Positions 27,855 to 64,000 of a stretch of DNA of 64,000 bases are shown here, piece after piece. Made by a program: the position numbers and the translations under genes. The notes under the pieces were generated by a model. That model was not told where the DNA came from, did no database searches, and was given only the letters and a program-made list of their open reading frames with translations. Numbering within the stretch: position 1 is the first letter of the stretch; each line of letters begins with the position of its first letter. Source of the stretch: Schmidtea polychroa. Lineage: Eukaryota. The DNA lies in the NCBI GenBank assembly GCA_044892525.1, contig CM097888.1, forward strand, positions 7,440,001 through 7,504,000. The letters run 5' to 3'.

Positions 27855-28610
27855 TCACATGAGGCCCGACTAACGAAAAATAGAGGACCCGTGAGGGTAG
27901 AAAACCGGGTTGACTGTCAAGTCGACCAGGCGGAGGACACCCCGCGTATGATCCCGCTAGAGCTTTCTATTGAGTGGTAGGTAAAGATTAAAATTTTTCA
28001 GAGCGCTTAATTGTGTTAAATAGTTAATTGTACAGATAGGAAAAAAAGTCTCGGGAAGAATAAGGGTAGATAGAATAGTAAATTTGAGAAGTAAACCTAA
28101 TGTGTCAGAATGAAGATAGGCTTAAACCACACATTATAGACCAAAATAATAATACAAGCCTAACTTACGACAAATTTCATCGAAGAGAGATAAGAATCAT
28201 CGCGCGAAAACCCGTCTATTGCGCCAACAACGGGTTAAAACCGAATTGGCCACTCTGGCTCCTCCACCAACCACACAAGTTATCATACAGACCTTCACTG
28301 TACGTAGTCGTCGATCCAGGAGTTGGTTGATATTCCATGATGTAAGGCATTCTAACGGCAGTCCTGATTGTTGAGGAGTGTATGAGTCAAGTAGTCGGAT
28401 TAAGTCAGCTCACCTTTGCTCATGCATTCTGCCGCTATATACAATACCCACGCGGGTTGGTTGCTTTAAATAATCTTGTTAGGCGTTCTAGGCTTTTCCA
28501 CCAGGATCGAATACTTCACCCTTAGCGAAGACTCTATAGGAGAGCCTAGGTTTAATCAAATCGAGTCAGCACAACTAGTTAACAGCCATCACAACTAGTT
28601 AACACCCAAT
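27855..28610 (+). mobile_element. Fragment of the LTR-like ORF/RNA-motif family (copy E7)
   Basis: Contains CGGCAGTCC...AGTAGT...GCTCACCT and CACCCTTAG, shared with 36686-36900 and 1523-1585, and GGACCCGTGAGG, the reverse complement of part of the 33318-33452 motif. Confidence 0.55.
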
Positions 28611-31549: not shown

Positions 31550-32404
31550 ATGGAAGAATCCAACTTTGCTGAAGATTGTTTCGCGAATAATACCTTTGTC
31601 GATAGAATCTATTTAAATGACTAGTTATTGAAATTGTTGAACGAATGGGTCAAACGATTTGTATATTCTAGTAATCCTAAGTTAATTCGAGAAGAAGTTT
31701 ATAAAGTATTTAACGGAAATTATGATATTTCTCAAAGCATCAGTAAAGATGAATTTCAGCAAATGATATGTACTAAAATTCATTGCACTAAAAGGATTAA
31801 AAATAAAGAGATTTCAAGTTGTTTATTCAATTCAATATTGCAGAGTTTGATCCATCAAATAGAAAACATATATGGTCTTGCCAGTAATCTTCACATAGAA
31901 GGTGCGACAGATGAATTAAAATCATCACCAGTGCGTCGAATGTTATGTTTAATTATTTTAATCGACTTAGTGATATGTGTTCTTCTTTGGATAATATATC
32001 TGCAGCAACATCCACCTCTTATTGACAATTTGAAAAAAGAAGTTCTCAATTATACTTTTAACAATTCATTATTCGATATGACCGTTTTATCCGGTTGTAG
32101 GTTTTTGTATTTATAAATCGCTTATGGTTGTGTTAAATCACAATTTCCTTGGTATATTTCTGTATCTACATTAATTACCAGTGTGTTGTCCATTATTAAA
32201 CTGGTTCTTAATATGATTAATGATCGTGTTGTATATAAATATTTAATGATAATTCTTTCATTTATAATGGAAACAATATTTTTAATTTACCGTGTCTTGC
32301 CAAAAGAAAAAGCAGCTGAAAGGGCCATGGAATACTATATATTTGTTTCTCAGCAACAATTAAGTTTATTATATAATATCTCGTTATATATTTCGATCTT
32401 TTGA
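31550..32404 (+). pseudogene. STARD3: MENTAL-domain protein (STARD3/STARD3NL-like), intronless, two in-frame stops
   Basis: SPVRRMLCLIILIDLVICVLLWII...LKKEVLNYTFNNSLFDMTVLSGCRF...WYISVSTLITS...YRVLPKE matches the MENTAL domain. One frame throughout, with TAG at 31622 and TAA at 32114; no START domain seen. Confidence 0.8.
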
Positions 32405-35147
32405 CAGTCTTCTTCATGCTAGAAATTGTATTAATAATAATGTTGGGCTGAATCGAAAACGTAAATTTAGAAAATAAGGAAAATAGGGCAAATAAGATAG
32501 TAAAGAAAATAAGAATAAAATAAACAATTTAAGAATAAAACAGAATAAGAAATAAGAAAAACAATAATTAAAAAATAAGAATTAAAACAAAATAATAAAA
32601 CAAGAAAATTAAAAATAAGAAATAAATTAACAGCCAAAATAATGTAAAATATAATAAGTATTGAAGAAATTAAAAGAATAAATAAAAAATATAATAGAAA
32701 TAAGAAAAGCAAGAAGATATAATCAAAAAACAGGAAAAAGAAATTAAATTAACTAAAATAAGCGGTACTCAATTTTGATTGGTCCGCATAAACGCCAAAT
32801 TACTATATAAGGAAATGTAAAACTCACTTAAGTTAATGTTAATTTCAACCTACTATAGGTAAGCCGAATTCAAAAATTATGAATGTTAATTTCAACCTAC
32901 TATAGGAAATGCACTAGTGGACAACAACAACTTACCGGAGAACAAAACCGACTACAGCGTACTCATCAACAAGCACACGGGACGACTAATTCCGAATTAG
33001 ACAATTCATTTAACGGACTCAGCGAGATTTTTCGATTCAGCCTAAACAATTCGATACCATAGTAAGGAGTATTTCATTTGTTCATTTACTTATTCTTTTC
33101 AAAAGTTAAAAGTAATGTTAAATATTAGAAATTAAACAACTTAGTTTAACTCTCTTCATTTGGTTCCCTTTAAAGTTTCAACCATGATAATGATTTAACA
33201 TGTAAATGTAATGGAGAACAATAAATGATTTCATTTTCAGCAATTTTTATGATTTACTTTATGAGTTCAGAATTTTATGAGTTAGTATGATATATATTAA
33301 ACTTCGATGCGAGTAACGTGGAGTTGAGGAACTTCATGTCATGGTGTGAGGTGCCTTCGGGAGCTCCGCCGGTGGACATGAGGTTTTTCAATCACGCAGC
33401 TTGATTGGGCCGAAATGTGGGGGTTTCCTCACGGGTCCAATCGCTGAAGATTGACTTAAAATTTGATTTGAATGATGAAAAGTGGTTTATAGTAGTGGTT
33501 CTAAGTCTATAATGAACACAAATTCTAAAGTGATTGAGGTGAAAGCCATATCTACCACGATCTTATATCGCCAATTACTTTCGCGAGGAACCGTACGATC
33601 CTGAGTCTAAACCTTCAATAGTATAGTCGTAATCCGTTTGAGTTTTGGCTCTAACATCTTACCAAATTCTTCATTCATATTCGTTTGTTCACTAATAAGA
33701 CGGGTTCGAGGTTTTCAGATTCATCTTATGACATTTAAAAATTATAACACGTAAATGACATTTATCAAAAATAGAGTAAAAACGTAAAATCCATAATGGT
33801 AATAGATTTTATTCAATACATTGTAAAACAAATGAATACTTATAGTATAGTTCTCCTATTACGAACTGTTCGAAATTTCCGCACCTGAATCAAGAATGAT
33901 AGGTATCGTCTAGACGAGACAAGTAGACCCTCCGTCGCGTAAAATATCCTATGTTAAGGAAAAATCCGAGCATCAGTAATAAACTCCAATTTTCTTCTAA
34001 GCTACTTGAGGATCCATAGACGAGAATAGAATGCTAATAGGTTTGTCTAGGCAACGCGATCAATTTTTATCAATAAAATGCTAAGGCAATTTGAATCGTA
34101 AAGGTCAAAATTCCAATGTTGCAAACAGTCGAAAGTAACCGATGACTATAGAACATTGAAAGATTTGTGTTCACCACGAGATAGTGATAAAACTCCAGTT
34201 GATTACTGTTGCACGCGACGGTGAGAAAAAATCCAATGTGATGAATGTGAATAATCACAAGGTGGCTGAGAAATACACACGATGGTGAATAAGAATGACA
34301 CAGTGAATGCATGGCTAACCACAGTAATCCGTATTCCACATGACGTATCTGGCATAGATTCTAACATCATGACTGATAACGAAGGGACATCGATTAACCG
34401 TCATAGTAGCTCCATGAGTAGCAGATGATGGCTCTCTTAGATTGTGTGTTGCAATGCGATCAACGAAAGATAACCGCATGCAGTAAAATTACATAAGCCA
34501 CTCATTAAGAAATTTTGAATGAATTAATTTAAATGATAACAGAATGGCTAAATTAATAATTATAGACAATTATGATTTGAATTAAATGATTTAAAGGGTA
34601 ACAGAATTACTAAGTGAATAATTGTAGACAAGTATAATTAAATAATTTAGACGATAACGGACTTGCTAAATTAATTAGGGATAATCAGGACATGCTAACC
34701 AACGATGGAAAACTTAAACCAAGCGCTAATAATAGAATCGGGATTTTTAAGCCTGAGCGTTACAAATGGTCCTGAACCTTGTTCTATTAAATATCATAGA
34801 TAACAATTGCGATCTTAACTCTAATATCATAGCTAACCTTAGAGAAATATTGACTGAATAAGCTACTAACCATCAGAATCGTTAACGGAATTTTATAACG
34901 AATCATTTTCTTAAAATCTTATAAATATCGGAAATAGAAATTCAAGATATTCTCGATAAGAATTAAAAATATTGTTTAACTAATAATTGGTGTCAGTCTA
35001 ATTGATAATTAAGCACATTTTAATAATGAAAAACTTAGTTTACCTAATCAAAGGTATTTTTAAACTGTACTCAAAGGTAGCGAACGATATTCAGGTATGT
35101 TTCGGGAACGATTAATTTGGGGTAATATGCGGTACTGTATATTAAGG

Positions 35148-35342
35148 CAGTGGTTCTCAAACTTTTTTGATCACGACCCAAATTTTTGACATTTAATGCC
35201 AAAAATTTTATTGCGACCCACATGACAAAGATTAAATAAATTTAAAAGGCTTAAACTTCCAAAATTTATATTTGTAGATCTTTCCATAAGTCATCGCGAC
35301 CCACCAAAAATTCTTTCGCGACCCATAGTTTGAGAAACACTG
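35148..35342. mobile_element. hAT (Charlie-like) MITE, 195 bp, nested in E2
   Basis: TIR CAGTGGTTCTCAAACT (15/16 match), perfect 8-bp TSD TATTAAGG. Confidence 0.93.
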
Positions 35343-35655
35343 TATTAAGGGGTCGGTAGTAATAGCTGGTTTGGAAAACTTTAGAGAAATTTAGGTAGCA
35401 ATCAATCAATTAATTCAGGATATTGAGTATGTATCCGTCAATACCATGATATATGTATAGTAAGACCAGTAATTTTTCTGGCAAATGATTATTTTACTAA
35501 TACCTTAATCCAGGGGAAGGTCTTTTCTTTTCTCTCATCTATTCCAAACGAGTTATCATCGAATGTCCGATAGTAACCCACCCCACACTCTAACAACGAT
35601 TTCGTGAATATAATATATTGTAGTAATCATGGTTCCTTCTGTTTAGCTATTCAAA

Positions 35656-36405
35656 ATGTTGCCATCGACTAAACCCACTTTGTGTCCTTGCTTCTCTTGC
35701 TCGGACAAAAATACAATTATCAAAGATCTGCAAGCCCAGATCGGGCGGTATAAAAAGAAGATAGATGAGTTGGAGGGCACTTGGTTTAGCCCCACTCAGA
35801 TGAAAGAAACACGGAAAAAACTGTATCGCAGCGAGCACTGTCGGGACGCTCTAATCTCTGAGAGCCGTGCCCAAAGAAGTTTGATCAAAGAGCAGTCCGA
35901 AGCGCTGCATAAAGTCTATCTCCAGGCAGCCACCACACGAAAGATTGTCCAAATTCCCATTAAAGAAGCCGACAACCTTTTTCCGCCCCATCACGATGTT
36001 TCTTCAAAATCGTCACCTCCCGTCAAGAGACCTTGTCCGGAGTGTGTCGAAACGGAACTTTCTCCCAAACGGTCAAACGTCATATTTATAGGTTCTAGCA
36101 AGGCGCCGACCGTTAGTTCATCAACATCAAGCATGTCTCAGCAAGTCTCAACTGCCGGAAAACCTAAACGCAAACAGCTATCGTGTGCAGAGCGTAAGAA
36201 AAGGCAACGTGAGCGAACATCTGCTAAGCCGAGTAAAACTCCAACGGACAACCCAGTCAGCAATAATACTCATCCTACAGTCGTAGATTTGACAGTCGTG
36301 GTCCCAGGGCGAATCATCTCCGCCGCTGGTGTGACCTGGGAGGAGAATGCCTCCGAATTCTTCGGCTTGGAAGAGCTCTTAGCAGTCACCGAATGGGAAA
36401 AATGA
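35656..36405 (+). CDS. 249-aa element-encoded protein of unknown function (Cys cluster, coiled coil, basic NLS-like segment, SIM-like VVDLT, acidic/aromatic tail)
   Basis: Intact ATG-to-TGA ORF, GC-richer than its surroundings; decayed homologues at 21175, 37727-38110 and about 57055; splice-acceptor-like TTCCTTCTGTTTAG 9 nt upstream. Confidence 0.75.
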   Translation: MLPSTKPTLCPCFSCSDKNTIIKDLQAQIGRYKKKIDELEGTWFSPTQMKETRKKLYRSEHCRDALISESRAQRSLIKEQSEALHKVYLQAATTRKIVQIPIKEADNLFPPHHDVSSKSSPPVKRPCPECVETELSPKRSNVIFIGSSKAPTVSSSTSSMSQQVSTAGKPKRKQLSCAERKKRQRERTSAKPSKTPTDNPVSNNTHPTVVDLTVVVPGRIISAAGVTWEENASEFFGLEELLAVTEWEK

Positions 36406-37361
36406 GGTCCCACAGTGAGATATTCGACAGATCTTATGAACTACAATCCATGTGTGTCTCCTCCTTCCTTATGTAAATACATTTGTAGTATGTAGTCTTC
36501 TGAGCAATTGTTGGGATAATACATTTTTATTTTTCCCTTTTGTTATGATGTCTTCTTTGTAAGGAATTAGTAACGATATTTAAATATATGAAAGTTTGCT
36601 CACTCTGGGAGAGTATCCGTCAATTTGCATTCGGCGTAATACCCAGCGGAGGGTCTGATAGCGTTGTTAGACGTAAGTCCTTCCATCGGCAGTCCGGTGT
36701 GGAAAGTCGAGGCCTCAGCAAGGAGTAGTTTTAAGGCAGAAGCTCACCTGCTTGCTGGCGTCTCGCCTGCATAGTGCAGTACCAACGTGAAGTAATTCAC
36801 GGGCACTATGTTGGAGTGCAAATTATGTGGGGTTCCTCTCCGAGTTGAACAGGTGAAGACGAATTCCATGCGAGATGGACAATCAACCCTTAGGCCAGCC
36901 ACTAATGTAGAGCAGTCAACCGAGTGGTACCCCAACAATAACTAAATGAAAATAAAGAATATTTAAACAAATTGACCAATAATAATCGTAATCAAATTGT
37001 ATCAAACATAAATATAAAATTTTATTTGGATATTTTAACAAACATTAACATTATTTCAGACTGTAGACTAGGCACTTTAAATATTAATTATAGGATTTAA
37101 AGATCTAATCAGCAACGCTTCATAAGTTACTCGTTCCCATTAATTACTCAAATCTTTCGCCATAATCCTAAAATCTCTGATTTCTCAGTTTCATAAAAAG
37201 CTAAATATTTATTGTCTTTAGTTTAAATTTGATTGATAGTTATCAAATCTAATACCATTCCAAGAGTTTCTACTAATAAATGAATGGGTTGTTTGTTTTA
37301 ACTCAGATTGTAAGCTTATGCAAATATTGATAATGAGTTATTGAATATTAAGGGAAACAAT

Positions 37362-39340
37362 TGATGGGTTACAGGTAATCCACAATTTCGCTTTCGTGCT
37401 GTTTCCAGCGTAACCCAGAATACAAAAATGCTGTGTACCGCTCGATACCCGTTGAGTGATCGTTGGAACTGTATCAAGTGGGCGAGTGGCAACGAAAAGT
37501 GAGCATATCTTTATATACCTTTATATACTGTATACGGCAAGCACTCGTGCGGGTTCGCGGACTACCAATAGAAGGCCTACATCCGACTTTCATTTAGGTC
37601 CCCTTTCCGGTGATCGCTTGTACCTATGATTCGGCTCTTATTATAATATCACTGCTTAATCAACGAAAATAACTGTCTAAATACATGAATAGATTTATTT
37701 AAAGGAAATCAAGGTTATACAGATATTTACCACTGTACCTTGGTTGTGATCAATTTTCGATGCATCTTGAGTCGTGCCCGTTTGGCTTTTCCAGGGCATT
37801 TCTTTTTCTGGTTTACTGTTCGTCGTTTGGCAATTTCCATCATCTCTGTCGTCATTGATCGAATCTGTTTGCTCAATTCTTGGTCAATGACATACTGATT
37901 TACTTGCATCTCCAGCTGTTGCAATTGGAGCCGGAGCGCTTTCATCTCAACTTGATTCTGCGTACTTTGGAGTTTTAGTTATTGTATCTGTTTCAGCTTC
38001 TTCTGCATCTCTATGAAACTAAACCAGGTGTCGTCGATCTCCCCGTACCGTCCCTTGAACTTGATAATCCGGCGCCGTTGCTACCCCACTTGGACCCCAA
38101 ATTTTCCATTAATTGGATCGCTGAAAGAGAAACAAGAACTTTAATTTGTAAAGGTTAAGTCTTTTAATTTAATTCCGAAATAAGATGTTTCGTATTTGCG
38201 AGAACTCGTCCGTCCTTATCGCTCCCCTTCGCTGACGGCATCCAAATCCGACCCTATTTCCCATTATTATCTAAATCGAACTTAAATATAACTGAGTTCG
38301 GTTGTTAATTTTCGCTTTATATGGTTTACACAGTGCATTAAAACGTCACTCAGGGTTATATAAAATTTATTAGCTTGTAGTTAGGGTGGCTGTGGGCCAA
38401 AAATGGTAGATGTGTAGGGTTGGGATGGATCTCATTTATCTAAAAAAGAATAGCAATAAACAACGATTCCACTCAAGCCTGCATCTCTGTAGCTGTGATA
38501 GAATCAAAAAAGATTGATATAAAAAAGTTCATAATCAATTAATAAATAAAACTGTCCTTACTCAGAATTTTTCTCAAGCTAGATCAAAATAAAAAATTTT
38601 GGCATAAGAGTGATTTGTAAACGAAATGTATCGGTATATATACCCTAATTTTGGTGTGCCAGTATGTGTACGTGCATTGGTTCAGTAAAACAAATTCGAA
38701 TTATTTTAATTCTAGTTAATTTTGGATCTTAATTTTTATCGATTTTAATGGTGATTTTTTGTAAATTAGTATTAATTTTATTTTCTAATTTTGATTTTTG
38801 ATTTTTTTATTAAATTTGCCACCATGATGGATATGGGTGTTTCTAGAACATTCCATGATGTTTTCTGATATTTTTAATATAAAATTATAATTTTTCTAAA
38901 TTTTCTGTTGGTTCTTTATACATTTTATTAATTTTAATACTTAAATGTTTTCTTTTGTTGACTTTGTAAAGTTGTTCGGCGGACATGATAGATTTCGCCA
39001 TTTTATGGACTGTTCTGGGTTTTTACTTATTTTTGCTTTAATTTTGTTTCTCACTTGCTTTTTGTTGTTATTTTATGGAAATCGTTTTGATTTCTGTTCT
39101 CATTTTTTTATTATCGCCATTAATTCTTTACTGGGTTATGTGTTCATGTTGTGTTTGAGTAGGTTTTATGCAATGCTTCTTGGTTTTGTTTGATATTTAT
39201 ATTAATTTGGATTTGTAACCTTTCCTTAGTTGATGTTTTACTATTTCTTATTTTAACTTTACTTAGTGCTTGGGTGTGCATGTTGTGTACGTTTCGTTAC
39301 GATCTCTATACTTGGGCCCTAATTCAGTTTTTGTCCAACA
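37362..39340 (-). mobile_element. TG...CA-bounded element (copy E4), 1979 bp
   Basis: Ends TGATGGG and TCCAACA, perfect 4-bp TSD CAAT; CCAAT at 38676-80 and TATATATA at 38635-42 on the minus strand; ORF; 3' structured motif. Confidence 0.8.
37727..38110 (-). pseudogene. Coiled-coil ORF of E4, homologous to the 35656 ORF, two in-frame stops
   Basis: IIKFKGRYGEIDDTWFSFIEMQKKL versus IIKDLQAQIGRYKKKIDELEGTWFSPTQMKETRKKL; acceptor TTTCTCTTTCAG 11 nt before the ATG. Confidence 0.65.
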
Positions 39341-39676
39341 CAATCTTAGAACCATGTTCTTTGTAATTTTGGTGATTAAAAGCTGAATTATCATCGATGT
39401 TTGTTTTGTGTTTGTGTGCGTCTTCTGCTAAGATTTTTTGAATAATTACGGATTTATATTTTCCTATAAGTTTCCAAATAATATTTTATCTCAATTATGA
39501 CTTCAATCCACAACAATTTTTTTGAATCATAAATCTAATAGAAAGTCATAAATCGTGTATTAGATTATAAACCACTTCCTTAATTGATAATATTTATTTC
39601 CTAAAAATTTAATCTACCGAAACTAACAATAATGTAAATAACTGGTTGACTTTTTTCACGCTATTAAAATTTTAAG

Positions 39677-40116
39677 GAGATACTGCGATTCGAGAAGTTT
39701 TCGAAGAGACTGGTATTGAAACAAAGTTTTTATCGGTCATGTCACTATGGCAACGTCACAATTTTCCATTAGCGTTTGGTCGATCTGATCTTTTGGCTCT
39801 TTGTCGGTTACAGGTTCTAACTGATAAACAAATTGATTTCAGTCCCTGCCCAGTGGTATACGTCTTGATTTTTTGCATCTTTTATTAGTCTCATCAGGAA
39901 ATAGAAGAGTGTTGCTGGATTTCTCCAAGATCTGTTTTAGCCGAAAAGTCTTATATTCAGACCGAGTATTTGTCTACTGTATTAAAATTGATAAATCATT
40001 GTTTGGAAACAAACAATTGGTCTGATCATCAGATGATAGGAAAACCCATTTCTAGTAGGCATTCGAAGAGCTTGTATAATTTATACTTATCTGATACCTC
40101 ATGGAATAGCATATAA
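39677..40116 (+). CDS. NUDT6: Nudix hydrolase NUDT6-like, last two exons (39677-39855, 39898-40116)
   Basis: GDTAIREVFEETGI (Nudix box 3' half)...FGRSDL..LCRL...EIEECCW matches NUDT6; 42-nt GT-AG intron; TAA stop at 40114-16. Confidence 0.85.
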
Positions 40117-42038: not shown

Positions 42039-42938
42039 TGTTGAGGATACCTGAATAGTTAGAATAACTTGGGGGAAAACCGATAGGGGGATTGAAATAG
42101 CATTCTAAAACTTGAAGAAAACAGAAAAGTAAAAAAATGAGAAATGAAGAAGGAATAACAAAACAAAAGAAATTCAACAATAAGGCGGAGAAATGTCACT
42201 TATAATTAATAAGTGCAAGAAACCAAAAACAAAACACGAAAACAAAATCGGCATCTCCAAACTTTTAGAGCTAACATGGGAACTAGTGAAAGTATGGAAA
42301 ACGTCATACGCAGATGAAATGGAAAAAAAAAGATGACGAATTATCCCCAGTGCCGAACTGTCAGGGGTAACACGGGAGTTGAAAAAAGAAAATGAAAAAT
42401 GCTAGAGAAAAAAGTTATCTTAATTAAATCCGAAGTGAAGTTGTGTTAAAATTGGAAAAGGAAAGTTGCGCGATATTTGAAAATTAAAATGAAGAATTCG
42501 AATTGTAATTGAAAGTTGTTGAATGCAGTAGTAGATTTAAATTGAATAGGCGACGTGATATTGTAGAGACCCGATATTGAGATAATTTAAGTGAACGGTG
42601 GGACGAAATTTGAATCAAATAAAAGAATTAGAGTATATCTAATAAAGTCACGTCAAAGAACATGGGTAATAGAAACCGATTTACCCAATTGTTGAGTCAT
42701 ATCAGCGGCTAGCGATTATTAGTGTATTTGGGAATTATACACTGTGATCTATTCCTCATTTATTGTTGTAATAAGCTTCGTATAATTGCCTACTTGGGTG
42801 TTGAATCGATCGTGTTGTTATAATTCGTGTAATCAACTGTGATAATCAATAAAGGTTTATATTGTCTGAGAATTGTTATTTTTTGGATCAAATCAGAGAT
42901 TTGATTGGCAACTTTTATATTTCACCAACAACCCAATA
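42039..42938 (+). mobile_element. Solo LTR (family 2), boundaries approximate
   Basis: Starts TGTTGAG and ends TCACCAACAACCCAATA, similar to the ends of 51080-52078 and of 63377 (reverse complement); no clear TSD. Confidence 0.5.
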
Positions 42939-43079
42939 AAATCAGAAGTGAGACGACAATATCTTTTTATGTAATATTTTATAAAGTCAATAAATTATTA
43001 CTTATATTAAACAAATGTATAATTAATATACAAGGCAAAATACATTAGGAAACTTAAAGTATGGAAAAGTTATAACCGG

Positions 43080-43810: not shown

Positions 43811-45291
43811 TAAATCTACACCAAATTAAACAACTTATAAGTTAAATTTTACAGAGAAAATTGCATTCTTCAAATCATGAGTTGAATGAAAAGCGAACTT
43901 TTTAATAAATTCACAAAGAATAAGACGTAGCGGTTTAGGTTGTATTAAATAGCAGATCATTCGCATTCGAATGGAATGACTATATCCAAATTCGAGTATA
44001 ATCCTTAAATTTAGAGAATTACCGGGGAATTATATTGAAAAGAAGAAAAGCTCGTAAGGTAACTCATCGGCATTTCGAGAAAGTTATTCTACAATTTTCT
44101 ACTCGTAGATATGAATTATTTGACATGTACACCATTTATGTCTTATATACGTTGATAAATCTGCCTTTAAGTAATAGTTCGATTGGTTGATAAATTACTA
44201 GAAGCTCGTGATCAAAGTAGAATATTTATATTATGCGAAGACAATATCTTTATATATAAAATTATTTATTGACGTATCTGTTAGTTTGATGCTAAAGATT
44301 GTCGGAAGTTACATTTAAAGCACCAATTGCTATTCAAAAAGTTAGATGTGTTTTAGAGTAATTAAGTATATGGATATTTAATAAAAAGATTTTGACTGTC
44401 AAAAGAGTTGTAACATTTGTCACATTTATATCACTCTCTCCTCCTCTTCTAAAAAATATATCTCATTTAATGGTGAATTATGTTTTCAGTATTTTGTACA
44501 TGCAAAACTTGTCTCAGGATTTTGTATATGGAATTGTGGTGATGCCAATTTTGTTACATGCATTTTCATGATCGAATTTGATATTGTCTACAGTGAAAAA
44601 TTATCTCAACCAAAACCACCAGAAATAGTGGTCAAAGCTGTTATTCAAAACTCATTCAACCATAAAACTCCTCATTAAAAAGATATAACCACAATTTCCT
44701 ATAGAAATATCATGAGAATATTTTTGTCTGTACAAATTCATCCCTCAAAAATATCCTTATATAAAGGAATGAGCAAGATAGGACGCATGAAATTATTGTC
44801 TCAAGCATCTAATGATATCTTTGCTTTGTTACAAATATCAGAGTTGAGAATATTTGAAAATTAAATTAAATAACTATTACAATTGTCTATTCTAGAAGCA
44901 CTTCGCAATTCCGAAACCTTTTTCATAAAGAGAATCGCAAAAGCTGTCTTGCTAATTAAAAAATTAAACATATTCTTGTCTTAGAATGAATTCAGATCCG
45001 GCTTATCAATAATGATAAAATTGTCCAAAATGAAATAATGACCTTAAATTATTTTTATTACGGTAATTTATTTATTTTTTTTAATATATGTTTTATAAGG
45101 ATTTCTTAAAATGAGTTTCTCAAATATATCATTGGCTCTACGAATGTCATCCATGACCTTTTCATGCATCTGTAATAATTGTTATATTATAAAATGCAAA
45201 TATAAATAATATATCTTAATGAATAAATTTGTTATAATTCAAAACAAAAAAAAATTATTATAAAACTAAGAAATAAATTAAAAACTAAATA

Positions 45292-46288
45292 CAGTGGCAG
45301 ACAAAGGTTAGTAGCACTACGTATTATTTATTACCATTTATTACAATACTTTTAGTAAATATTTATCAAATGTTTGTGATGCAATATAATCTAAACATAG
45401 AATTTAGAAAAAACAATTGCAGCAATATTTAAGCTTGATTTCTCTTGTTTGTCCTTATATATTTATATTTTTCTGTCTCTGCTTACTGGTCAAAAACAAG
45501 AACTTTCAAACTTTAAGGTCTCAAATAGTGATCTTGAAGAAGGAAAACTACTCTGAGAGGTAAATAACATTGAAATTAGGAGTACATTCATCAACTGTTA
45601 CTCGTACAGTTTCTAGATATTATTATCCTGGGATTTATTCATCAAAACATCGCTGTGGAAGGCTTACTGTTACTACCGAACGAGATCATTTTGACTGCTA
45701 TTAGCAGTACTGGAACATGTGGATTTTGGATCATGCACAACAATTAACTCCATTCTATATGTTGATATACTGTCATATCATCTCCTACCATACATAGCAT
45801 ATCATAACTTCACCCAGCTACTTCATGGCAGAGCAACATACCAATCGGGACAGGTTGTGCAAAGCTGGCTCATGAAACGCAATAATCCTATGGTGGCTCA
45901 TGAAACGCAATAATCCTATGGTGGCTCATTAAACGCAATAATCCTATGGTGGCTCATTAAACGCAATAATCCTATCGTGGCTCCTCTAGCCTGGGTCATC
46001 ACCAGGTCTAAAACCAAATGAAGAAAAAGTTTCAGCCAAGAAACCATAATCTATGCTTGATTTAAAACAGAAGATACATGATGTATGGTCAACAGAAATC
46101 ACCCCTGCTTACTGCGGCAGGTCAGTGAACTATATGCCAGCAAGAATTGTTACTGTCATCAAGACTAAAGATTACAAACTAAGTACCGAAAACTGCTTTA
46201 ATATGTTTATTAACTTTTGAATTGATTGTTAACTCTTATTTAATAGAATTTTAAATTGGAATAAGTGCTAGTAATCTTTTTGCCACTA
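45292..46288 (+). mobile_element. Decayed Tc1-type transposon
   Basis: Imperfect TIRs CAGTGGCAGACAAAGGTTAGTAGCACT; fragments RCGRLTVTTERD, INSILYVDIL, SSPGLKPNE (from SPDLNPIE) and VNYMPARIVTVIKTK. Confidence 0.8.
45866..45983. repeat. 28-bp tandem repeat x4 inside the Tc1 relic
   Basis: TGGCTCAT(G/T)AAACGCAATAATCCTATGG repeated. Confidence 0.95.
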
Positions 46289-47593: not shown

Positions 47594-48294
47594 TGTTGGG
47601 TATTTTGTGCAAGTCGGTATCACTGTCTGACTCATTTGTGTCCTTTGAAAATAAGTTAAACAACCCAACACAATCTATATTCGAGACTAATACAATTACA
47701 CTTGGGTTACACTTTTTATCGATTCAACCACACTTTTTTGCACTTTTCAATACCACTGTAAATCTTACATAGGGATAAATCTTCCAATGGGAGTTTTCCG
47801 TTTCTGGTACGCTCGATTTTAAAAATATTCCGTTATCACTAAGTTCAAAATTTTCTTGGTTTTACTCTCGCAAAATTGTTCGTTAACTTTTCTTCGCTTC
47901 TGAGCTCTCTTTTTATACTGTTCAGAAAATTATCTAGAAAATTGCGCTAAATTATCTCTTCGGGAATTTTGGGTTTTTTGTTTATTCTAATTTGTTTACC
48001 CTTGATTAGGGCTAAAATATTCCTCCTTTTATCTCACTGCCATCGGGTTTCCTACAACGCTTAGCTTTCCATTACCGATTAATTAATTTTAATTAATTTG
48101 TTTTTTTCGCATTAACTTTCCATGTGAACATTAAATTTTCATTATAATTTCTGAAGTCGTCTATCAAACCGTTCAATATTGATTTTTGATTTTTAATTAA
48201 TTTTAATTAATTTTCCACTTTTATTGATTTTTCCATTATTTATTATGCTTTCCTTTTATATATGAATTTTTTGGTGTTTGCGGTAACCCCAACA
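47594..48294 (-). mobile_element. Solo LTR (family 2), 701 bp
   Basis: TGTTGGG/CCCAACA termini, perfect 4-bp TSD CATC, internal homology to 51080-52078. Confidence 0.85.
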
Positions 48295-48447: not shown

Positions 48448-50976
48448 TAGGGCTTGCAATACCGGGATCCCGGTATTACCGACATTTTTAATACCGTTCA
48501 ATACCGGTATTAATGACCACTTAATACCGGTATCCGGTATTAATTTTTTTTGCTGTAAGTTAACATTCATATCATTTTTATTTTTTATAAGTAATTAGCA
48601 TATGTTTAGGTGTTGTCATGTTTAAAGATTAAATCTAATTTTGAAATTTACTGAAGTAATTTGTTTTTTTTACATTAAGAAAGAGCCTTTTTGTACGTTA
48701 ATTTTTCTAATACTAAAAAAATACTAAAAAAGACACAAATTCACATAGCAAGTCGTTTCTATGGGAAATTATTGTTTTCTATTTTTCCAAATTTTCAATA
48801 TTGAAGCTATGTTTTTTATTTTATAAAGAATAGTTAGTTAGTTCAGTTGTAAAGTTTTTGAAAATTTAGAGAATTGTGTTTATGTATAATATAAAAGTTA
48901 AAAAATATTTAAAATCATAATTATAATTAATAATCATTAATTCAATTGATAAATAGCAGATAGATAAAGGTAAGTTAAAAGTGTGAAAATTAATTATTGT
49001 ATAAGTAAAATTTTTATCTTCTATATATTTATATAGATAGCGGAGCTATCATAGCTCACTGCTGCGGGTTTTTTAAAAATTAAAAATAATAAATAATAAT
49101 AAAGAATAGCAAGATTTCTGCCGTTTTAATAAGTGGGTACAAATATTCAAAAAATTTTGTAATTTACTTAAAGTTAAAACGCTGTTTTTTTAGCCATGGA
49201 AAACTATGTTTTTGAGGGAAAATCAGCTGATGAAAATTCCGTATGGTTCTATTTTCTTCGTGAGAAAAAGGGACAAATTTCAAAATGTAAGAAGTGTAAC
49301 AAAGAAATAAAGACGCAAGGTAGTACAAGTGTGTTGCCCTCGTTGAAGAAAGGCTTAAATTATTCCAAGTTTCTTTAAATAAACACATTGTGTGCATTAC
49401 AACTGATGGTGCATCTTTCATGACCAAAGTTGGAAAGTTGATTTGTGCAAGGAAACAACTTTGCTTAGTTCACGGAATTCAATTGGCTGTCATTAAGGTT
49501 TTATATATAAATATGATACACCAAAATTTAGAAAATGAACATTCTAATTGTAACGAAAATGATATACAAGTATACCAGTATACAAGTGATGAAAATGATA
49601 GTGATCTTGATGATAATAGTTTTTCCATACTTCAAGAAAACAATGCAATTGACTGTTTAATTATTCATGAACAGATAGGTCCATTGATTAAAAAATAAGA
49701 AAGGTTGTGAAGCTATTCAGACGTTCGCCAATGAAAAATGATAAAGCTTTACAGAAACATGTTAAAGAACAATTTGGAAAGGAACTGAATTTAATTCTAG
49801 ATTCTAAAACACGTTGGAATAGCTTACTTGCCATGCTAAAACGCTTTGTCCAGTTAAAGAACTGCATACAAAAGGCTTTGATTGATTTAAATTTAAATGC
49901 CGAAATATCATTTTCGGAAATTGATTTTTCTTTAGCATCATCAGTTATTTCAGTTCTTCTTCCAATCAAATTAACTGTTGAAGCTTGTTGTCGTCAAGAT
50001 GCTACTCTTCTTAGCGCAGATGCAGCTTTACTATTTATGTTTAATCAATTGACAGAACAGAATACTGCTTTAAGTAATTAATTCAAAGAAGAGCTAATTA
50101 TTCGTATAAAACAAAGGCGTACTGATTTATCGAGTCTACTACAATACCTGCACAATCCTACTGAATCAGCAGATGACGACCAAAATGAAATTTTTAATCG
50201 AATTAACAACGCAACAATTATAAAAATAATTATAAATTTATTGGAACGCTTATATACTATCGATGTCATCGATATTGAAAACATAGGAGCCTCTTCCATC
50301 GACGTTTCTGAGATTTTCTGCTGATTCTGAGCCAGAAATTCTAAGTTCGATGACAATGAAAGAAAAACTAGAAATGGCAATTTCCAAGAAAGTTAATGTG
50401 ATGAATTTCAAAAACGATGAATTCTAAAATACTTTATAAAGTTATAAAACAGGAACTAGCATACTTCGAAGTAGAATATATTAGAGGAAAATATCTTCAA
50501 CTAGTATATGACTGCCTTATGTCCATACCACCAACTAGCGTCGAGTCCAAAAGAGCCTTTTCAGTAGCAGGGCTGTTGTGCACAAAAATTCGATCCAGCT
50601 TAAGCGACAAAACTCTTGATAGTTTAACATTGTTGAGGGCATATTTTAAAGGCAAATCACAACAATAGGAGTCCTATTATAGGACATAGGACTTATTATT
50701 CTTATATATTATTAATTATATTATTACTCTTTTTTTATTTTATATTTTTTTTGTCTTTTGTGGCACTTTAAAAAAAAAGTTTATTGTTTCGAATTATTCA
50801 TTATTGAATTAAATATTTTATTTTCTTTATAAATATTTTTTTTCTATTTTTTGCGGTGTAGTTTTGCTTTTTTTGTTTTTTCTTAAATACCGGTATTAAT
50901 ACCGGGATCCCGGTATTAATATAATGAAATACCGAAATACCGGTTTTGAAAATTTGATCCGGTATTGCAAGCCCTA
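48448..50976 (+). mobile_element. hAT DNA transposon with intact ends
   Basis: Perfect 18-bp TIR TAGGGCTTGCAATACCGG, 8-bp TSD GTTAGAAT/GTTAAAAT (7/8), subterminal ACCGGGATCCCGGT palindromes at both ends. Confidence 0.95.
49196..50668 (+). pseudogene. hAT transposase, deleted and frameshifted
   Basis: BED finger (VWFYF...KCKKC), ITTDGAS, CLVH, DSKTRWNS and SIPPTSVESKRAFS across several frames. Confidence 0.92.
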
Positions 50977-56779: not shown

Positions 56780-58023
56780 AACTAATTTTGGTCTTTCAGA
56801 AATGAAAGGTTCAAAACTCCTGATGACAACGTTATCGCATTCTTATGCGACAAGGGGTTAGGTCCTCTTAAACGGTCTGATTAGTAGTTCCTTTTATAAT
56901 TAAATTAATCTTGTTAATATATATTATTATTTAACATACTCTTTTCTATTTACAAAAGAATTTTTTTGAATGGTTTTTGGAATTATTATTTTTAATTGTA
57001 TTTTGTTGTTTAATTAAATTAATTTTTTGTTTAACAATATAATTACTCGAGAATATGCGGGTAGACGGTAAAAAAGCTAAGGACCCGAATAAAGAAGCTT
57101 GGGGTCGATGCTGAGAAATGGATCACTTCTGGTTTAATTACGAGGACATGAAACATTTACAACAAATACAGCAATTACAAACCCAGATTGACCAGGATCA
57201 AGTAGAGTTAAGAGCACTGAAGATAAAGATGAGACAAATAGAGACCCAGATCCACTAGCGGGAGATTGATACTTATGTTGATGAATCAGATTGTGCCTCT
57301 AACACAGACAGAGCTTGCTCACGCGAGGTGCTCAAACTGTCGAGTGGCGGAACCAGAACGAAAAATGACCATATTAGGCCGTAGTTGTAAACCCCGGAAA
57401 GATGTGCGCGCAGAGGCTCAAATCCTGATATATTCTAATATTATAAATGTGTTATTGAAATGAAATAGTTTAGTTAGTCTTACGATACACATATTTATAA
57501 ACTCGTATAATCTATAAAAATGCATGATAATCGATGAATACTAACATTTAGCACGAACAGAACTGTAATCCCTACAACGGGAGCATTGGATTGCCGGGGA
57601 GTTGACGAAAGAAGTGAATTTAAGACTAAGGCGTCTCCGAGAACCGGCGGGTAGTAGAAATGGAATATCGATAGAACTCACATTCTGTATGTTATAATTT
57701 AGCAAATAAAGTTTATTTAGCGATTACTTTTCTTAATCAGTCGAGTATTTTAGAAAAATGGGTTAATCAATAGGGGACCAAAATTAAAGACAGACAAATA
57801 CCTTCTAACGGTGCTACGTGAAACCACTCAAATACTAAACGATTATAGTGTACAATAGTATGCTCATTTTCGCGAGTATTCACCCATTCGACACAGTTCC
57901 AATTTTGATTTTGTCAACGGGTTTCGTATGGTATATTGTATTCTGGGTTACGCTGGAAACAGCACAAAGTGATTCTATTCAATTATTCTTGTCAACTTGA
58001 AAGCTTTGCTAACTAGTAAACAG
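56780..58023 (+). mobile_element. Truncated LTR-like element (copy E5) with decayed coiled-coil ORF (about 57055-57380)
   Basis: DHFWFNYEDMKHLQQIQQLQTQIDQDQVELRALK aligns with the E4 ORF; 57860-57967 is the reverse complement of the 3' motif at 14465-14620 and 37362-37505. Confidence 0.65.
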
Positions 58024-59272: not shown

Positions 59273-59731
59273 ATCCTTTTTAAAGACCTACCAGTGAAAG
59301 TGGATGAGAATGAGTGCCAAATCAATATCCAGTTATCCAGTCTGGTAATCAAAAGAGAATCTGGTGTTAAAATCGCTGGTTTCGTGCTAGCAGAAATAAA
59401 ACTTAAGTTATATTGTGGAAGAATTAGGCTTCAAATTAGTCATGGTTCAAATTGTGTTTAGATAGACCTTTCAATGGTAGCCTGTGAAACCGAGGTGCTT
59501 CCGGACAATTGTAATCCTGAAGTAGAAGCTCACTTTTTATGGACGATGGTTTCCTCATGTCATAGTTCCAATTTTGACCCACGACAGGTGTCGGATATGA
59601 CAATCTCATATGCTATGGTGATGTGGCAACAAAGTTTAGGCAATCTCTGGAAGTCGGTTTTTAAACGAGAAATTCTCGTAGATAACACAGTTGTGCTATC
59701 GAACGATTACAACAAATTTTTCACGTCTTAA
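59273..59731 (+). other. About 150-codon frame of unknown product split by one TAG (59459)
   Basis: Track ORFs 59249-59461 and 59474-59731 are in the same frame; no recognisable domain. Confidence 0.35.
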
Positions 59732-60244
59732 ATTTTTCTAAAATTTTAAATTCTTTATTGATTATTTTAAAACTTAAAAAAATTATTCTTTCGCAAATAT
59801 TTTCCTACTCAATTTCTTAAAATTTTCAGTGCAACAATTTTTCTTTAATTTGAGCTTATCGGACGATTTTTGACACGGCTTATGTGTCATTGAAACTTCC
59901 TCGGCCTTATGAGATTAAATCCCAACAAATACGTTATATAAAAAATTTGATTTGCCAACTATATCCGCAAAACTAATAAATTGAGTTATATCATAAAGCA
60001 TTAGAGAAATTATTTAGAAAAATTATTTCAAAAAATTATATCAAAAAATTAATATTTTATTTTTCAAAAACAGTATAATTTGTTGATAGTAATTAAATCT
60101 AATAAAAATTTTAATGTATACCAGTTTGTTTAAATTTGTGGTAAATGTTTAGTTGCTTTATAAATTTTTAAATAAGAATTTTATTTTTATTTGTTAATTT
60201 GTTAATTACAAAATTTTGTCATTTAAAGTTTGCTAATTTTAGAA

Positions 60245-60712
60245 ATGGGATCCGCTGCACAAAGACGCTTAATTAGAGACCTGAAACGTCTTCAGGACGA
60301 TCCACCAGCTGGTGTATGTGGTGCTCCAATTGATGACAATATCATGTACTGGAATGCAGTTATTTTTGGTCCAGATGGAACTCCATTTGAAGATGGGACT
60401 TTTAATTTGAGATTAGAGTTTTCAGAAGAATATCCAAATAAACCACCTCGAGTAGTGTTTACCTCTAAAATGTTCCACCCTAATGTATATGCGGATGGAA
60501 GTATTTGTCTTGATATTCTTGGAAATACCTGGAGTCCCACATATGACGTAATTGCTATACTTACATCAATTCAATCACTATTAGATGAACCAAATCCAAA
60601 TTCTCCAGCAAATAGTGTTGCTGCTCAATTATATACAGAAAATAGGAGAGAATATGAAAAGCGTGTTAAAGAATGTGTTGAAGAAAGCTGGTTGGAGAAA
60701 GATGATCTCTAA
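60245..60712 (+). CDS. UBE2A: Ubiquitin-conjugating enzyme E2, RAD6/UBE2A orthologue (155 aa)
   Basis: [17 protein letters not shown]...GTPFEDGTF...YPNKPP...[16 protein letters not shown]...[10 protein letters not shown]; catalytic Cys intact; ATG at 60245; no coding introns. Confidence 0.97.
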
Positions 60713-62879: not shown

Positions 62880-63376
62880 TTAAAAGCTAATTAAATATTC
62901 AAAAAAGTAAAAATTAATAGTTTTCTGGGGAAGGCAACCGGTGGCAAATTAAAAGTTGTAGAAGAAAAAAATTATTTTAAATTGATAGGTGGTCCTAGAA
63001 AGGGTGCAATGAAGAAACAAATTAATTAATTTAATTCATTTATTCTTTATAGAAAATTCATAGATCATTCAGAAAATTTCGGAGTTGACAAATCGATTGC
63101 GTACATAAATCATTTTGAGAGAAACATCTCAACAATCATTCGTTTATCCTGAGAAGGGAATTGACTAAAGCCAATAACAAAAATCGTTAATGACAGATAA
63201 TTTGTATAAACAACAACGAAGAATGAATAAAATTACCACATTGGTTGGAAGAGGGAAAGTTACAACTCACTAGTCGGCATCAGTTTGCAGAACGATATAG
63301 AAGAACCCTAAGGTTTTGAATTTTAATTATTGTGGACGTTTTCTCATGATCAATAAATAATTTTATTTTTTGATAT

Positions 63377-64000
63377 TGTTGGGTTATTGAGTTGGTGATA
63401 ATTTTAAATGTTACTCTGACTCCAAGCGTGTCTTTAACTGATTCACAAATAACACTTGATAACAGAAATCTTTATTGATAATCACAAATGAACTTTCTCT
63501 TTACACTGACAATAAATTCAACACTCTGCTTGGTGACTATACAATGCTTATTACAACACTCGATGAGGAATAGTACTTGTGTATAACACCGGATTAAAAG
63601 ATCACAAATCACTGATTGGTTTATCACTGGGACTTTAAGCTGGTTGTTATCTTTGACTTTCTTCACAACTTTATTCAAATAATCAAATAACGTCTTTTCT
63701 ATTTATTCTTCAACTAATTCTTTTCTTCAACTCTTCTCCAATAATTATTCTCCACAATTATTTCCTTTACAATTATTTTTGACAATCGTTTTTCCGACAA
63801 CGTTTCGTCCAACGTCTAATTTTCTCCAATAATTTTATCTCTCAAATTGTCTCAATTTCGCGTCACTTTTGTCTCTAATTTTATTCTGATATCATGTCCA
63901 CTAGTTTTCCCTTATACAGTTCGCTTCTCTTGTGACACTCTAGATAATCAAGTGTTTTTCCATTTTCCTTCTCCTGCTTTCCTCGACTGTCCCATTTTAT
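63377..64000 (-). mobile_element. LTR (family 2), partial, runs off the window
   Basis: Reverse complement ends GGAGTCAGAGTAAC...AATAACCCAACA, like 52078. Confidence 0.7.

Follow-up and report, generated by a model that had tools for sequence, protein, structure and literature searches.

A family of TG..CA-bounded pieces occupies 14,458 of the 64,000 nt (about 23%) of a stretch of Schmidtea polychroa DNA (assembly GCA_044892525.1, contig CM097888.1, positions 7,440,001 to 7,504,000), called the window here and numbered from its first letter. We consider it probable that these pieces are solo long terminal repeats (LTRs) of a planarian retrotransposon, probably of the Ty3/gypsy type, in which a giant R-U5 region carries a spliced accessory gene, perhaps a Rev/Tat-like one. 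Whole or decayed, they most likely descend from an old and diverse LTR retrotransposon family, and no internal region lies among them. The window itself is AT-rich eukaryotic DNA with assembly gaps; its host genes include one for a ubiquitin-conjugating enzyme and a MENTAL-domain piece.

The pieces are named c1 (94-1754, plus strand), c2 (16202-14465, minus), c3 (19114-21448, plus), c4 (32441-36937, plus), c5 (39340-37362, minus), c6 (about 56780-58010, plus), c7 (about 27855-28610, plus) and c9 (59460-59594, plus). Their nucleotide similarity comes in patches of 58-75% identity, some merely A-rich, and splits them into group A (c1, c3, c4 and c7) and group B (c2, c5 and c6). An earlier note, made from the letters of this DNA alone, had described at least six related and bounded copies, each of which looked like a self-contained transcription unit. 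A shared 3′ motif in all six listed pieces with a 3′ part bears out the relationship, which otherwise amounts to the patches. As to the bounds, c3 is a 5′ part only, for which neither a right end nor the 3′ motif was found, and c6 is a decayed 3′ part with a recognisable terminus at neither end. The anatomy of a transcription unit is found in c4 and in none of the other pieces.

The most complete element is c4 (32441-36937, plus strand, 4497 bp), a probable solo LTR. Its termini, TGTTGGG..CCCAACA, form a perfect inverted match of 7 bp, and exact copies of the target site duplication (TSD) ATAA flank it at 32437-32440 and 36938-36941. We compared region 31900-39800 with the contigs of four public runs (X1, X5, X7 and X8), never taking contig depth as copy number. 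A contig of X5 joins position 32440 directly to letters matching 36942 onward, with one ATAA left. This empty-site joint exists in three versions with a depth of 41-43, similar to that of the unique flank. The joints fix the ends of c4 and the 4-bp duplication even if some of them are paralogues. With TG..CA ends and a single copy of the 4-bp target at the empty site, c4 is a true integrase-type insertion, as had been proposed, and its presence differs between samples. Insertions of this family have been mobile in recent times. The depth of X5 falls to zero at 33748-34275, which agrees with the empty site; a hole alone proves nothing. Further young, near-identical c4-type copies occur in X1, and c5 occupies its own place in X5 too. 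A second 5′ end at 36509 (TGTTGGG behind CAAT) was considered and rejected, since the empty site sets the ends at 32441 and 36937. The use of X7 and X8 as evidence of expression was likewise rejected: their RNA nature is only a guess, and the joints are also found in a DNA run.

The ends of the other copies are of the same type, as had been claimed. The 12 letters TGTTGGGCTGAA are the common start of c1 (94), c3 (19114) and c4 (32441), and close variants start the minus-strand copies c2 (TGTTGGGCTAGA, at 16202) and c5 (TGTTGGAC, at 39340). The far ends read CCAACA, CCACCA or CCATCA. The perfect inverted match measures 6 bp in c1; in c2 and c5 it is 2 bp, followed by one mismatch and 3-4 further pairs. 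Longer direct or inverted terminal repeats that exceed shuffled sequences were found in none of the five copies (terminal 400 nt for inverted repeats), so the stated lack of long terminal direct repeats was confirmed, and none of the five contains the direct terminal repeat of a two-LTR form (TRIM/LARD). Exact TSDs flank two of the four complete copies, c4 and c5 (CAAT/CAAT); the chance that two random 4-mers of the window are equal is P = 0.008. Flanks resembling a primer-binding site (PBS) or polypurine tract (PPT) were seen at none of the five 3′ ends and six 5′ ends inspected, as expected for solo LTRs after LTR-LTR recombination. Among the 24 of 1573 loose contig ends that were listed, none runs past a terminus. 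No tandem or paired copies exist in the window; the neighbours c4/c5 and c2/c3 belong to different subgroups and lie on opposite strands; for their orientation, both couples were rejected as LTR pairs. The combination of c3 and c7 as the two ends of one element was rejected in view of an inexact TSD and of the 6.4 kb between them, which contains MITE-like palindromes (MITE, miniature inverted-repeat transposable element) and a host-like frame.

The layout of the copies is asymmetric. All five copies with a 5′ end have a TATA-like word 364-699 nt from that end, behind an A-rich arm. The proposed order of A-rich arm, ATTGG or CCAAT, and TATA-like word holds for four of the five: ATTGG precedes TATA by about 30 nt in c1, c3 and c4, CCAAT is present in c5, and c2 has the TATA-like word without an exact CCAAT upstream. 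In c4, the arm (32441-32770, 56-69% A over the first 300 nt) would represent U3, and it is followed by a predicted promoter at 32778-32810 with the reverse CCAAT box ATTGG (32778) and TATATAA (32804), spaced as in c1 and c3. Downstream, long GU-rich leader hairpins form a high-copy conserved block at 33303-33452, with a summed contig depth in X1 of 26,425 versus about 18 in the unique flank. Their stability is specific to the sense strand (z -6.7, antisense -2.0), as is that of the long hairpins of c1 (z -6.9, antisense -1.7), where the leader rod lies at about 948-1045. A sliding fold scan gave significant values for c1 (z -7.0) and c4 (z -5.6) and a weak one for c2 (z -3.3), and no strong leader fold was found in the scan of c5 (37362-39340); the structured leader proposed for the whole family is thus retained for c1 and c4. 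At the other side of the elements, AATAAA occurs within the last 800 nt in c2 (340 nt from the end) and c5 (338 nt), that is in two of four copies; c4 has only AATACA words after its stop codon and c1 has none. This uneven presence leaves the R/U5 border uncertain.

The second half of c4 contains an intact open reading frame (ORF) of 249 aa (35656-36405, plus strand), with a predicted splice acceptor at 35630-35646 (plus strand), 9 nt upstream of the ATG. In c5, the strongest predicted acceptor (38121) is 11 nt upstream of the ATG of a broken, distant ORF (38109-37727). The family ORF is intact in c4 alone; besides c5 it is broken in c3 (21177-21448) and c6 (about 57055-57380), and a profile of eight relatives run against the six frames of the window gave no sense match in c1 or c2. 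The postulated pair of a splice acceptor (by prediction) and a small ORF is complete in c4; c5 has a predicted acceptor before a broken frame. Comparison of c3 with c4 over 46 codons revealed 9, 9 and 31 differences at first, second and third positions, respectively, with a dN of 0.17 and saturated synonymous sites. The excess at third positions shows that the frame is selected; the ORF of the c4 family is under purifying selection. High-depth relatives in X5 and X7 match the c4 protein in islands, namely the core, aa 178-186 (AERKKRQRE) and aa 217-239.

The encoded protein has two long helices (aa 16-40 and 46-99), an Arg/Lys-rich motif (aa 178-186) and an acidic aromatic tail (aa 217-249). 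In the predicted structure (pLDDT 71, pTM 0.35), the two long helices are accompanied by a linker that is disordered, and the basic motif is helical. An exhaustive search found eight outside relatives (E 1.6e-7 to 3e-4) and a profile search seven more, 15 altogether, and the profile of the first eight recovers c4 (E 6e-24) and c3 (E 1e-9) from the window. Thirteen of the 15 contain TW..P, 14 contain E.R.Q[RK], eight have an Arg motif of the RRRRERR type (P/R-x-[KR]-N-x-RR..ERR) and six have the acidic aromatic tail. In three, four identical residues precede the family Met, which is what a common acceptor would produce. For the c4 ORF, Pfam gave nothing beyond weak coiled-coil matches, the PDB profile search a single match (E 0.27), and the ESM Atlas best values of 0.82 and 0.81 and no family. 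A word-indexed search with the single c4 protein found none among 634 candidates; motif scans of viral contigs gave zero matches in both cases, and protein scans none among 22 candidates from viral contigs and 160 from metagenome contigs. Five metagenome matches to a 19-nt motif proved unrelated. Elsewhere in c4, Pfam detected nothing in the six frames of 33241-35642 or the three sense frames of 36406-36937. Of the ten scanned ORFs of at least 90 aa starting with ATG, eight contain no reverse transcriptase (RT) or integrase. The two transposase pieces, Pfam-positive or hAT-like, are not part of any copy, and the copies indeed appear to lack RT, integrase and transposase.

The most widely shared feature is the 3′ motif, which is present in c1 (1506-1640), c2 (14607-14566), c4 (36670-36806), c5 (37595-37431), c6 (57779-57975) and c7 (28328-28485), plus c9 (59460-59594), which the earlier note does not list, and lies 100-151 nt from the 3′ end in all four complete copies. 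It consists of CTCAC, about 30 nt, CAG, T-n-CC-AA and a stem-loop, with a CCTTC-type block upstream in six of seven copies. In c4, where it would belong to U5, GTAAG and CCTTC are followed by CTCAC (36743), AG (36778-36779) and an AA-bulged hairpin. A six-copy regular expression was built from the same copies, so its null value of 0.05 overstates the case; cross-validation with profiles is the fair test. Outside its own members, the group A profile (c1, c4 and c7) matched c5 best (E 7e-7) and c2 second best (E 6.5e-4), and it missed c6. The group B profile (c2, c5 and c6) found 59460-59594 (c9, nhmmer E 6.4e-7), then c1 (E 0.01) and c7 and c4 (E 0.5-0.7). The RNA-like 3′-terminal motif of the earlier note is thereby substantiated across subgroups. 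Its internal spacing of 30-33 nt shifts by single bases, which breaks any frame and identifies the motif as non-coding; for this reason, and because Pfam found no match, a protein remnant was rejected. The motif reads as a branch point (CTCAC) plus an acceptor (AG). The arms of the hairpin behind the AG differ in sequence and yet pair in c1, c2 and c4. A search of the 64-kb window with Rfam gave one chance match and none inside a copy.

Several observations were made beside this motif. Group B ends contain a GCTG-GNRA-CAGC tetraloop hairpin, with GAAA as the loop in c5 and c6 and GTAA in c2. It is enclosed by a TGGGTTAC/GTAACCCA stem, which in c5 (37362-37420, minus strand) closes at the terminus. 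Contigs with such loose ends number 57 in X1 and 82 in X5. Part of the c7 motif (28365-28393) has a near-exact 29-bp duplicate about 1.1 kb upstream (27239-27267). The c9 copy and the intronless gene for the ubiquitin-conjugating enzyme (60245-60712) share a strand, with c9 about 650 nt upstream, and a CCCAACA follows c9 at 59927.

Of the two options raised by the earlier note, a giant solo LTR carrying an accessory gene fits the ends, the asymmetric layout with the promoter 0.35-0.7 kb inside, and the selected ORF. The short TG..CA ends match the LTR consensus TGTTRNR..YNYAACA (PMC3601003). An RNA starting after the TATA does not contain the A-rich arm, and only a second repeat restores it; we therefore infer a solo LTR. 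Flatworm Saci2-like LTR elements have TGT..ACA ends and a 4-bp TSD (PMC12471100), and gypsy elements make up more than 90% of planarian LTR elements (bioRxiv 10.64898/2025.12.11.693146), which together favour gypsy over BEL/Pao.

A two-LTR parent would have been integrated by its integrase with a 4-bp TSD, and recombination between its LTRs would then have removed the interior. In each LTR, U3 would be A-rich and short (0.35-0.7 kb) and include CCAAT and TATA. R-U5 would extend over 1-4 kb, with the structured leader, the splice acceptor, the gene (about 250 aa) and, 100-150 nt before the 3′ end, the conserved non-coding motif; a lone LTR is thus predicted to have the anatomy of a small transcription unit. 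With introns and a gene in this region, the parent would depend on two kinds of RNA: spliced forms, from which the accessory protein and gag-pol are expressed, and an unspliced form, from which the LTR is copied. Complex retroviruses meet this need with a coiled-coil protein that has an Arg-rich motif, and the accessory protein may resemble Rev, Tat or CERV of Cer1 in this respect. The accessory protein, made from spliced RNA, may oligomerise, bind the leader or 3′ hairpins and favour the full-length RNA, and the acceptor-like 3′ motif might let gag-pol mRNA bypass kilobases of upstream AUGs. RNA binding by Rev-class proteins goes through an Arg-rich motif. The coiled coil, the Arg-rich motif and the acidic aromatic tail suggest an oligomeric RNA-binding regulator, and if the pieces are LTRs we propose tentatively, as one possibility, that the protein regulates the transcript of its own element. 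A Tat/Tas-like activator would be just as compatible with the acidic aromatic tail.

Alternatively, the pieces might be LTR-derived units that now spread with no autonomous parent to supply them, either as a non-autonomous two-LTR or tandem form (TRIM/LARD-like) with borrowed RT and integrase or as single units re-integrating from one-LTR DNA, and the internal gene would then serve the unit or its helper. The share of the window taken up by the family without any internal region, the young c4-type copies in X1 and the finding that no ORF relative is fused to Gag or Pol all agree with such units. We regard them as unlikely: by the established LTR mechanism the A-rich arm is missing from a transcript that starts behind the TATA, and without a second repeat a single unit has no means of restoring it by reverse transcription. 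The window offers no tandem or paired copy. Mobilisation by a Ginger-like partner, the other option of the earlier note, would make the pieces non-autonomous Ginger1 or Ginger2/TDD-like DNA transposons that carry a passenger gene and move by cut-and-paste. Such elements share the TGT ends and the 4-bp TSDs, Ginger2 favours AT-rich targets (PMC2836005), and the empty site is compatible with either route. Their defining terminal inverted repeats (TIRs) of 40-270 bp (PMC2836005) are not found here, where 2-7 perfect bp are present and nothing longer rises above shuffles. The targets ATAA, CAAT and AAAA/AACA share AT-richness with those of Ginger2 and are not CCGG or CCGT, with no clear RTATAY core among these few sites, and c4 has no integrase-like frame, which makes a Ginger origin very unlikely. 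Solo LTRs of a BEL/Pao family, whose TSDs usually measure 5-6 bp, are highly improbable given the 4-bp TSD seen by the empty site and the c4 ORF, which ends 530 nt before the end of the element and contains no host or ubiquitin domain; short inverted LTR ends are a trait that BEL/Pao elements share with the pieces (PMC3601003). Mosaics assembled by chance from unrelated AT-rich repeats, in which the TG..CA words are a coincidence, would explain why A-rich low complexity makes up some of the pairwise similarity and why TG[TGA]TGG-type words are frequent in the window (38, with 44 mirror words), and they are barely credible in view of the empty site at the exact ends of c4, the cross-validated motif at a constant place in four of four complete copies and the selected ORF.

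The solo-LTR family may have been met before. GLT2 is a transposon of Schmidtea mediterranea that was probed by Li et al. 2021; SMEDWI-2 silences it, and RNA interference against smedwi-2 leads to its derepression in neurons (PMC8532177), and PMC10954484 names it without more. Read by eye on the reverse strand, the GLT2 probe (Table S1 of PMC8532177) shows a stretch rich in A and T, followed by pyrimidines that run up to an AG, as in a splice acceptor, and behind them a frame that is open. This frame fits the family pattern TW..PE....L...I..L in a by-eye reading of 400 of the 485 letters, which carries no score; the second family motif, E.R.QR, is absent from the frame visible in these letters. 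The pattern is found in 11 of the 15 relatives and nowhere in the six frames of the window. By eye, the probe named GLT in the same table contains no such motif. The parts of PMC8532177 and PMC10954484 drawn on here contain no description of the structure, class or protein of GLT2. From this likeness, the family of c1 to c7 appears to be kin of GLT2, so that it is probably already on record. In Repbase, GLT2 is an entry under Gypsy (GLT2_SM).

A number of points weigh against our reading of the pieces as solo LTRs with a regulatory gene. Paired LTRs, PBS, PPT, gag and pol were not seen, so that the parent is inferred. Among the complete copies, c2 is flanked by AAAA/AACA, equal in three of four letters and already called imperfect in the earlier note, and c1 by GATT/ATCT, a mismatch which that note did not mention. 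Left of c4, the flank is present in many copies (depth in X5, 578-992), and empty-site contigs may be paralogous loci. Canonical AATAAA was not found near the 3′ end of c1 or c4. A donor-like GTAAG or GTAGG lies 66-76 nt upstream of the acceptor-like AG in only four of seven copies, and the AA-bulged hairpin folds cleanly in three of the six tested and is degenerate in c5, c6 and c7. The protein profile links the broken frame of c5 (E 0.079) and c6 (E 8.4) only weakly to the family. None of the 15 relatives is fused to a Gag, RT or integrase domain; 13 are joined to unrelated host domains and two have no Pfam match. We take these relatives to be gene models that may have taken in intronic repeat copies. 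The c4 protein has RKKRQRER and not the exact Arg motif of the relatives, the REV family of Pfam matches one of nine aligned members weakly (E 9e-4), below a family call, and Foldseek with the c4 protein model gave no match at E 0.001 in BFVD or PDB. The likeness to GLT2 consists of one motif read by eye, of which c4 itself has TW..P only.

Solo LTRs, and genes overlapping an LTR such as sag of mouse mammary tumour virus, are already known. The literature that we searched contained no description of an accessory gene that is spliced, under selection and located behind the TATA within a gypsy-type LTR, nor of a GLT2 protein (Repbase and Grohme et al. 2018 lay outside this search). Solo LTRs are usually inert promoter scraps; here a protein family under purifying selection, left unexplained by Pfam, PDB, BFVD and ESM Atlas, is kept, together with an RNA motif that persists across barely alignable copies. 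A broader proposal, which we consider somewhat unlikely, is that a flatworm lineage put a Rev/Tat-like gene, introns and the RNA target into a giant R-U5, so that each of the very many solo LTRs in the genome would be a spliced coding unit that stands alone. Such LTRs might work in trans on intact elements, and they might become active tissue by tissue, as GLT2 does, once silencing by PIWI-interacting RNAs (piRNAs) lifts. If our main reading of the pieces as gene-carrying solo LTRs holds, regulation in the style of complex retroviruses would be packed into an invertebrate LTR, GLT2, which already serves as a marker in planarian piRNA studies, would gain a molecular identity, and the recurrent chimeric gene models (13 of the 15 database relatives) would be accounted for.

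The remaining features of the copies are as follows. c1 (1661 bp) has both ends intact, and three diverged tandem units of about 73-80 bp each lie at 1247-1450. c2 and c5 measure 1738 bp and 1979 bp, respectively, and the outer limits of the c7 fragment are approximate. c4 carries a later insert, a MITE of 195 bp (35148-35342) with the 8-bp TSD TATTAAGG, which we take to be hAT-like; it is missing from three contigs of X1 (joint 35139-35343). To the left of c4, the piece of a MENTAL-domain gene (31900-32427) is multi-copy in three runs: depths there are about 216, 578-992 and 270, and those of the right flank about 18, 45 and 8. Between c4 and c5, the spacer contains part of another high-copy repeat at 37083-37360 (loose end 37083 in X5 and X7), from which the depth at 36916-37443 partly derives.

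Other elements are present in the window. A 701-bp element at 47594-48294 (minus strand) has TGTTGGGG..CCCAACA ends, an exact TSD (CATC), an A-rich arm and a TATA about 375 nt inside; the family 3′ motif was not found in it and its similarity to the family is A-rich only. It is probably an ordinary-sized solo LTR of another family, and its TSD alone is not significant (4 exact matches seen versus 1.4 expected among 172 pairs). The segments 42612-42947 and 63368-63708, 62% identical and in opposite orientation, both end CCAACA-like and are perhaps the 3′ ends of a further LTR family. An open frame of 312 aa at 2995-3933 (minus strand) encodes a Tc1/IS630-type transposase (Pfam DDE_3, E 7e-30) and is flanked by a 65-bp inverted repeat (2840-2904 and 4021-4086). 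A broken hAT-like transposase was recognised by eye in several frames of 49164-50668 (plus strand), and Pfam found nothing in the one piece scanned. Tandem arrays lie at 4621-5305 (about 173 bp), 8999-9632 (80-90 bp) and 45838-46005 (28 bp), and palindromic MITE-like inserts at 22684-22933, 23125-23208 and 44493-44736.

Among known systems, Ginger1 and Ginger2/TDD elements have the same TGT ends and 4-bp TSD, whereas the c4 family lacks their 40-270-bp TIRs, their transposase and the CCGG target (PMC2836005). The Saci2-like solo LTRs of Metaviridae share the short inverted ends, the 4-bp TSD and an AT-rich promoter region (PMC3601003, PMC12471100); they measure 251-521 bp, in contrast to 1.7-4.5 kb here, where a selected ORF and predicted splice signals follow the TATA. 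Large size has parallels in Burro/GYPSM1 of planarians, thus from the same host group, and Ogre of plants, which are likewise multi-kilobase with accessory ORFs: Ogre LTRs measure 1.9-6.5 kb and Burro exceeds 30 kb (PMC6431247). Compared by description only, their accessory ORFs are internal, and the part of that source drawn on here mentions no ORF in the LTR. Rev-class proteins bind structured RNA (PMC10309623), and the same source describes CERV of the Cer1 element of Caenorhabditis elegans. CERV has 517 aa and is coded between gag/pol and the 3′ LTR, and its comparison with the c4 protein is one of proposed function and not of homology. It provides a precedent: a novel protein, made from spliced gypsy RNA, which serves to export the unspliced genomic RNA (PMC10309623).

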